This document shows, one piece after another, positions 6,790 through 7,613 of a stretch of DNA of 43,525 nucleotides. The first letter of the stretch is position 1. Each line of letters starts with the position of its first letter. Source of the DNA: Escherichia coli (GTDB taxonomy: Bacteria; Pseudomonadota; Gammaproteobacteria; Enterobacterales; Enterobacteriaceae). The translations under genes and the position numbers were made by a program. The DNA is taken from assembly GCF_003334255.1 (NCBI RefSeq), contig NZ_QOWU01000046.1. One strand, written 5' to 3'. Under the pieces are notes generated by a model that was not told the origin of the DNA, did no database searches, and saw nothing but the letters and a program-made list of their open reading frames with translations.

Positions 6790-7613
6790 ATGATTGTTCG
6801 TCCACAACAACACTGGCTGCGCCGTATTTTTGTCTGGCACGGCTCAGTATTATCCAAGATATCCTCGCGCTTACTACTCAATTTTCTCTTTTCTATCGCT
6901 GTTATTTTCGTAATAATGCCGGGTACGCCCGTTACGTTGAAGCGCGAAAACTTTGGGGGCAGTTGATGATTGCCTCACGGTCGTTACTGCGCGAGGTAAA
7001 AACGACATTGCCGGATTCGGCAAGTGTAAGGGAGTTTGCCCGGCTGCAAATCGCTTTCGCCCACTGTTTACGCATGACATTACGCAAACAGCCACAGGCG
7101 GAAGTGCTGGCTCATTATCTCAAGACTGAAGATCTTCAGCGTGTACTGGCTTCGAACTCTCCAGCTAACCGTATCTTGTTAATAATGGGAGAATGGTTGG
7201 CGGTTCAGCGCCGCAATGGACAGCTTTCAGATATCCTGTTTATTAGCCTCAACGATCGGCTTAATGATATTTCAGCGGTCCTGGCAGGATGCGAGCGCAT
7301 TGCCTATACGCCAATTCCCTTTGCCTACACCCTGATTTTGCATCGTACCGTTTATCTGTTTTGTATCATGCTGCCGTTCGCGCTGGTCGTGGACCTGCAT
7401 TACATGACGCCTTTTATCTCTGTGCTGATTTCCTACACTTTTATTTCGCTGGATTGTCTGGCGGAAGAACTGGAAGATCCGTTCGGTACTGAAAACAATG
7501 ATTTACCACTGGATGCCATCTGCAACGCTATTGAAATTGACCTGTTACAGATGAACGATGAAGCCGAAATTCCAGCAAAAATTCTTCCCGATCGTCATTA
7601 CCAGCTGACGTGA
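6790..7613 (+). pseudogene. yneE: Bestrophin-like (UPF0187) membrane protein gene, apparently disrupted by an internal deletion and frameshift
   Basis: A frame-1 ORF starts MIVRPQQHWLRRIFVWHGSVLSKISSRLLLNFLFSIAVIFV and hits a stop at 6964. The rest of the protein (RNNAGYARYVEARKLWGQLMIASRS... to HYQLT) continues in frame 3 with no plausible start of its own. Summed length is about 276 aa against a recalled 304 aa for intact YneE. Confidence 0.55.

Follow-up and report, generated by a model that had tools for sequence, protein, structure and literature searches.

A 91-bp deletion flanked by a short direct repeat probably inactivates the bestrophin gene yneE in an Escherichia coli strain of K-12-like background

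Introduction

The gene yneE of Escherichia coli encodes a bestrophin-like protein, and in the contig NZ_QOWU01000046.1 (assembly GCF_003334255.1) its coding sequence appears to be split between two reading frames. This raises the question of whether the strain has truly lost the gene or whether the sequence was damaged during assembly. An initial annotation, made from the sequence alone, had proposed an internal deletion with frameshift that inactivates yneE. Here, we compared the locus with intact yneE alleles, and analyzed the reading frames left behind, the protein segment affected, the distribution of the allele, and the contig in which it lies. The whole stretch of DNA analyzed, 43,525 nucleotides long, is hereafter called the window, and all positions refer to it.

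Results

The yneE locus and its deletion

The yneE locus occupies positions 6790-7613, between uxaB and tam, with the lsr operon beyond tam. This gene order, with yneE next to uxaB and tam convergent, is common to the window and E. coli K-12. The neighboring genes and the candidate transcription signals are the following:

5132-6583, plus strand: uxaB, with its stop at 6583
6600-6621, plus strand: terminator-like hairpin and T-run 3' of uxaB, by consensus match
6639-6666, plus strand: weak sigma-70-like promoter match 5' of yneE, by sequence match
7617-8375, minus strand: tam, convergent with yneE

The whole region upstream of yneE is K-12 sequence, and the transcription signals are therefore untouched. 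Since tam is convergent with yneE, a frameshift in the latter has no polar effect on the downstream gene, and a polar effect on the neighbors was ruled out, as uxaB also has a terminator-like hairpin of its own. With promoter, terminator, and adjacent genes unaltered, the effect of a lesion at this locus should be confined to yneE.

As a reference, we used the intact yneE of strain C600 (915 nt, 304 amino acids, WP_001313828.1, annotated as 'bestrophin family protein'), and positions 6600-7800 were compared with this strain base by base. The sequences matched perfectly over 310 bases from the left and 896 bases from the right, the C600 sequence was 91 bp longer, and the left and right matching stretches overlapped by 5 bp. 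This single 91-bp gap, corresponding to CDS nt 116-206 or, equivalently, 121-211, was the sole difference in the region, and the remainder was 100% identical to K-12. The alignment with C600, with its gap and broken frame, thus bore out the internal deletion of the initial annotation, and the comparison with a reference that had been proposed there as a check served to size and place it: the deletion had been put near 6910-6915 with about 85 bp missing, and it turned out to be somewhat larger, with the junction slightly upstream:

6905-6909, unstranded: deletion junction with the single retained copy of TTTTC, from prefix and suffix mapping with 5-bp ambiguity

The sequence spanning the junction is CTATCGCTGTTATTTTCGTAATAATGCCGGGT. 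In C600, the pentamer TTTTC is found at both ends of the deleted segment, and one copy was kept in the window. No scar, cassette, or vector sequence was present at the junction. When random deletions of 20-500 bp were simulated at this locus, a microhomology of at least 5 bp was found in 0.6% of them, and the corresponding value for all possible 91-bp deletions in yneE was 1.5%. Since such a microhomology is rare by chance, the anatomy of the junction is that of a short-direct-repeat or slipped-strand event and not of a random break, and the deletion would fit the microhomology-mediated type, as judged from this anatomy. The ancestral yneE would have contained two TTTTC pentamers 91 bp apart, and a slipped-strand deletion between these short direct repeats would have removed one copy along with the intervening 86 bp.

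Reading frames left by the deletion

As 91 equals 3 × 30 + 1, the reading frame is shifted at the junction, and two remnants are left:

6790-6966, plus strand: N-terminal remnant ORF, with 40 native codons (M1-F40) and 18 out-of-frame codons (VIMPGTPVTLKRENFGGS)
6906-7613, plus strand: C-terminal remnant in the native frame, from F70/R71 to T304, with 100% identity to K-12

The ATG at 6790 opens an ORF of 58 codons that starts with the native residues 1-40 (MIVRPQQHWL...FSIAVIF) and reaches a TGA stop at 6964-6966; because the frame is shifted after codon 40, the native start yields only a 58-amino acid peptide, 40 residues of it native and 18 novel. The +2 frame gave an unbroken match to the rest of YneE (F70/R71 NNAGYARYVEARKLWGQL... 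to T304), with the stop at 7611-7613. Within the frame of this downstream part, start codons were absent between the junction and 6962, and the in-frame ones found were TTG at 6963 and ATG at 6966 (M90). The longest ORF in the native frame had 216 amino acids, and no single continuous ORF of about 300 amino acids was present.

These data refine the initial annotation in two respects. It had counted 41 N-terminal codons before a stop at 6964; the stop is where it was placed, and the native codons are 40, since residue 41 of the reference is M and the V41 of the window is, therefore, a product of the junction. Likewise, the remainder of the gene had been assigned to frame 3 without a start of its own, and the frame was correct, whereas the TTG and ATG codons mentioned above had been overlooked. 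The length of about 304 amino acids given there for intact YneE agrees with that of WP_001313828.1, and the window does not follow this protein in a single frame, so the alignment did not bring out the refuting result named in the initial annotation.

Loss of the pore-lining helix

To place the deletion on the protein, intact K-12 YneE was aligned with KpBest, the bestrophin homolog of Klebsiella pneumoniae (PDB 4WD7/4WD8). The match covered residues 1-296 with E = 2e-105, and the alignment was gap-free over the N-terminal residues 1-103. The fragments in the window are identical to YneE outside the deletion, and precomputed Pfam hits to PF25539 (Bestrophin_2 / UPF0187) were found on N- and C-terminal YneE fragments from other strains. 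In KpBest, the hydrophobic neck is formed by I62, I66, and F70 on helix S2b/TMD2, and it governs gating and selectivity (review PMC8496536). Given the gap-free alignment, the neck positions of YneE are V62, I66, and F70.

The deletion removes YneE residues ~41-70 (MLPWYTHLGIKFTLAPFSILGVAIAIFLG), which include the end of TM1, the periplasmic loop, and essentially all the pore-lining TM2, as anticipated in the initial annotation, where the missing segment had been assigned to the first transmembrane hairpin. Two of the three neck residues, V62 and I66, are lost, and the codon for F70 is found only in the disconnected downstream frame, so the window allele does not encode a pore-lining TM2 with the three neck residues. 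From this comparison, a pentameric channel with a normal pore could not be made from the window allele, and we infer from the structural homology to KpBest that the channel function of YneE would be lost. Programmed frameshifting and an in-frame variant protein were discarded, because a length of 91 bp is not divisible by 3 and the segment removed encodes a conserved pore helix present in 98.6% of the genomes analyzed below.

Distribution of the allele and other lesions in yneE

The intact 126-bp segment around the deletion site was found in 5,351 of 5,426 complete E. coli genomes (98.6%), and yneE was intact in the closest genomes, those of MG1655, C600, and 2-331. All 30 complete genomes among the matches listed spanned the site in two pieces, with 1292 bp versus 1201 bp in the window. 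The junction was searched with a 49-bp query, each half of which is too short to seed megablast, and it was found in 0 of the 5,426 complete E. coli genomes. Similarly, neither the GTDB species-representative genomes nor the JGI metagenome contigs contained the exact junction 32-mer, and exact look-ups among about 15 billion proteins returned neither the junction peptides of 58 and 75 amino acids nor the 216-amino acid product that would start at the TTG codon. The relatives and the species at large thus carry an intact gene and, among the collections searched, the junction occurs only in the window, which is the pattern of a strain-private pseudogene.

The 215-amino acid ORF that starts at M90 and ends at T304 had been called by gene callers on at least 458 public contigs, which first suggested that the allele is common. 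This idea was rejected when 10 of these loci were inspected, as all showed other lesions and none contained the junction or the breakpoints of the window. The 10 loci represented five different, unrelated lesions:

yneE CDS nt 261: 1-bp deletion, in Shigella dysenteriae Sd197 and relatives
yneE CDS nt 105-261: 157-bp deletion, in E. coli ED1a
yneE -45 to 268 and -206 to 164: two distinct 5' deletions
yneE CDS nt 130: one +1 insertion

Inactivation of yneE has thus taken place several times, each independently. The M90 ORF was itself the query, and the clustering of lesions upstream of codon 90 is, therefore, an ascertainment effect and not a sign of selection. In a study of Salmonella Montevideo, yneE was among the genes with clade-specific premature stop codons (PMC13269107).

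Strain background and other features of the contig

The window differed from MG1655 by 12 SNPs, mostly synonymous or intergenic, and six of these (628, 5090, 23101, 25593, 26500, and 37117) were also absent from 2-331. The SNP at 26500 changes codon 30 of ydeS (S30N) and is shared with many assemblies, i.e., it is not private. These SNPs are ordinary natural polymorphism of an ST10-like lineage and not the result of mutagenesis.

Other structural features were observed along the contig. At positions 1-77, the end of an IS1 element abuts the region between ptrR and yneK, some 28 bp before the start codon of yneK; neither MG1655 nor 2-331 has IS1 at this site, and either simple insertion or a rearrangement mediated by IS1 may account for the arrangement. 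Compared with MG1655 and 2-331, the window also lacks 469 bp at 25210-25211, a second deletion with a 2-bp microhomology (GC) that takes away the remnant of the yneL (HTH) pseudogene and the 5' part of ydeT, an usher pseudogene. This deletion was found in 0 of the 5,426 complete E. coli genomes, and was present with an identical junction in the independent Logan assembly of run ERR13324808, where the stretch compared ends 7.3 kb short of yneE; none of the rare proteins of that contig is encoded less than 10 kb from the yneE junction. Other carriers of YdeS S30N have a hipA-ydeS structure of 509 bp versus 1,129 bp in the window (25212-26340), and these differing structures indicate that the yneL-ydeT pseudogene region has several deletion alleles in the population.

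An autotransporter of the ECSE_1600 family, a pseudogene in K-12 (ydeK/yneO/ydeU), is an intact ORF of 1806 amino acids at 17635-23055. The G-run at ~21583-21589 has seven residues in the window and eight in MG1655, and 2-331 carries the same intact allele; the eighth G of MG1655 leads to a frameshift, with the first stop after 1325 codons. The Logan assembly of ERR13324808 is without 2,178 bp of this gene (window 18746-20922) and encodes a product of 1080 amino acids, which could mean either that repeats of the passenger domain were deleted in frame or that they collapsed during the Logan assembly.

Genuine allele or assembly artifact

The initial annotation had left open whether the lesion is a strain-specific loss of function or an assembly error. 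In the latter case, the yneE of the strain would be intact, and the 91 bp would have been lost by misassembly, from a chimeric library molecule, or by a consensus error; in favor of this, the allele has been seen once, with a junction unique to the window across all the collections searched. However, the ends of the window speak about how it was assembled. Its first nucleotides, exactly 77 of them, belong to an IS1 end and match the copy annotated as IS1B in strain 2-331, and the IS1 terminal inverted repeat GGAGTCATTACC ends at position 77. At the right end (43206-43525), it stops at nt 320 of the gadB CDS, and this is exactly 77 nt past the last base that distinguishes gadA from gadB in MG1655 (nt 243). 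Taken together, the two ends of the window indicate a complete, repeat-bounded contig of a k = 77 de Bruijn short-read assembly. A graph of this kind could not join sequences sharing 5 bp without reads across the junction, which makes an assembler jump implausible, and chimeras of low coverage are usually pruned.

The contig was otherwise clean, as no error-type or spurious indels were detected in the remaining 43 kb when compared with close relatives, and the only homopolymer difference from MG1655 was the G7 of the intact autotransporter allele, which is known from natural isolates and shared with 2-331. Moreover, the other unusual deletion of this contig, that of 469 bp, was matched in the independent dataset ERR13324808, which argues that the assembly reports real structural alleles, and the significant microhomology at the yneE junction is what a biological deletion mechanism predicts. 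Collectively, a strain-specific loss is much better supported than an assembly error, which we regard as unlikely, and the window very probably carries a genuine, lineage-private null allele of yneE.

Internal start codon and the putative truncated product

Next, we considered the start codons of the downstream part. The new stop overlaps the in-frame ATG within TGATG at 6964-6968, an arrangement also found in the -1-class yneE lesions, and two further features were predicted:

6955-6959, plus strand: Shine-Dalgarno-like GGGGG run, 6 nt 5' of the internal ATG, with a predicted anti-SD duplex of -8.4 kcal/mol
6966-7613, plus strand: putative truncated product of 215 amino acids (M90-T304), an ORF whose expression is conjectural

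The predicted anti-SD duplex places the ATG at 6966 in the top 2% of the plus-strand ATGs of the whole window, while the duplex at the native yneE start is only -1.0 kcal/mol. On these sequence features, the M90-T304 fragment might arise by internal initiation or reinitiation, and it would be without TM1 and TM2. The GGGGG run and the codon-90 ATG (6955-6968) are present in intact yneE too, and given this internal SD and the weak native one, internal initiation might occur even in the wild-type gene.

Two readings follow in which the lesion would be something other than neutral decay. The broader one, in which selection would act on an expressed fragment devoid of TM1 and TM2, or some niches would favor the loss of the YneE channel, is in our judgment quite improbable. 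The narrower one holds that the allele is not null: termination-reinitiation at TGATG, aided by the GGGGG run, would yield a YneE(90-304) with retained or gained function, and the recurrent lesions would have been selected. The strength and 6-nt spacing of the SD-like duplex, its rank among the ATGs, and the stop/start overlap are in line with this, as is the fact that S. dysenteriae, ED1a, and other strains keep the identical 215-amino acid ORF after independent lesions. However, TM1 and the pore-lining TM2 are missing from the fragment, the recurrence was made by the look-up itself, since a search with the M90 ORF finds only lesions located upstream of codon 90, and the lesions are heterogeneous, two of them removing the promoter and start region, as expected from neutral decay. 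This functional-fragment explanation is, therefore, very improbable, and the null-allele interpretation is retained.

Discussion

Our analysis supports that yneE should be annotated in this strain as a pseudogene, frameshifted by an internal deletion, and not as two hypothetical proteins. It is one more independent null allele of a gene that is near-universal in E. coli yet repeatedly lost, as in S. dysenteriae and ED1a, and this repeated loss would fit a protein that is dispensable in some niches at least. The allele is new and the event is familiar, an ordinary strain-private inactivation that leaves current understanding unchallenged.

Junctions produced by alternative end-joining in E. coli also contain microhomology. 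An engineered or laboratory-induced deletion, whether from a Cas9 cut repaired by microhomology end-joining or from mutation during passage, could be thought of, given that E. coli yneE has served as a neutral test target for Cas9 (bioRxiv 10.1101/272377), but it is extremely improbable in view of the 12 SNPs relative to MG1655, the intact autotransporter, the extra IS1, the 469-bp deletion common to the unrelated run ERR13324808, and a junction free of scar, cassette, or vector sequence. This ST10/K-12-like background is that of a natural isolate, as opposed to laboratory K-12, which argues against engineering, and on these grounds both a K-12 laboratory origin and CRISPR editing were rejected.

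In the literature searched, we found no report of channel activity for E. coli YneE itself and no established physiological role for it. The strain would amount to a natural knockout of yneE on a K-12-like background, and it could help to find a phenotype for an uncharacterized bacterial bestrophin.

The allele can be compared with three known systems. KpBest is pentameric, conducts Na+ in bilayers, and has an aperture at I180; unlike it, the window allele is without the neck-bearing helix and cannot encode a full protomer. Apart from the deletion, the DNA of the window agrees in every base with K-12 yneE (b1520), from a point 190 bp before the start codon and on past the stop, and it differs in lacking CDS nt 116-206 and in having the frame broken after codon 40. 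Finally, the lesions of the Sd197 and ED1a type and that of the window all disrupt the N-terminal third of yneE independently and spare the same M90-T304 ORF, whereas the window allele has an ST10/K-12-like background and a 5-bp direct repeat at its borders.
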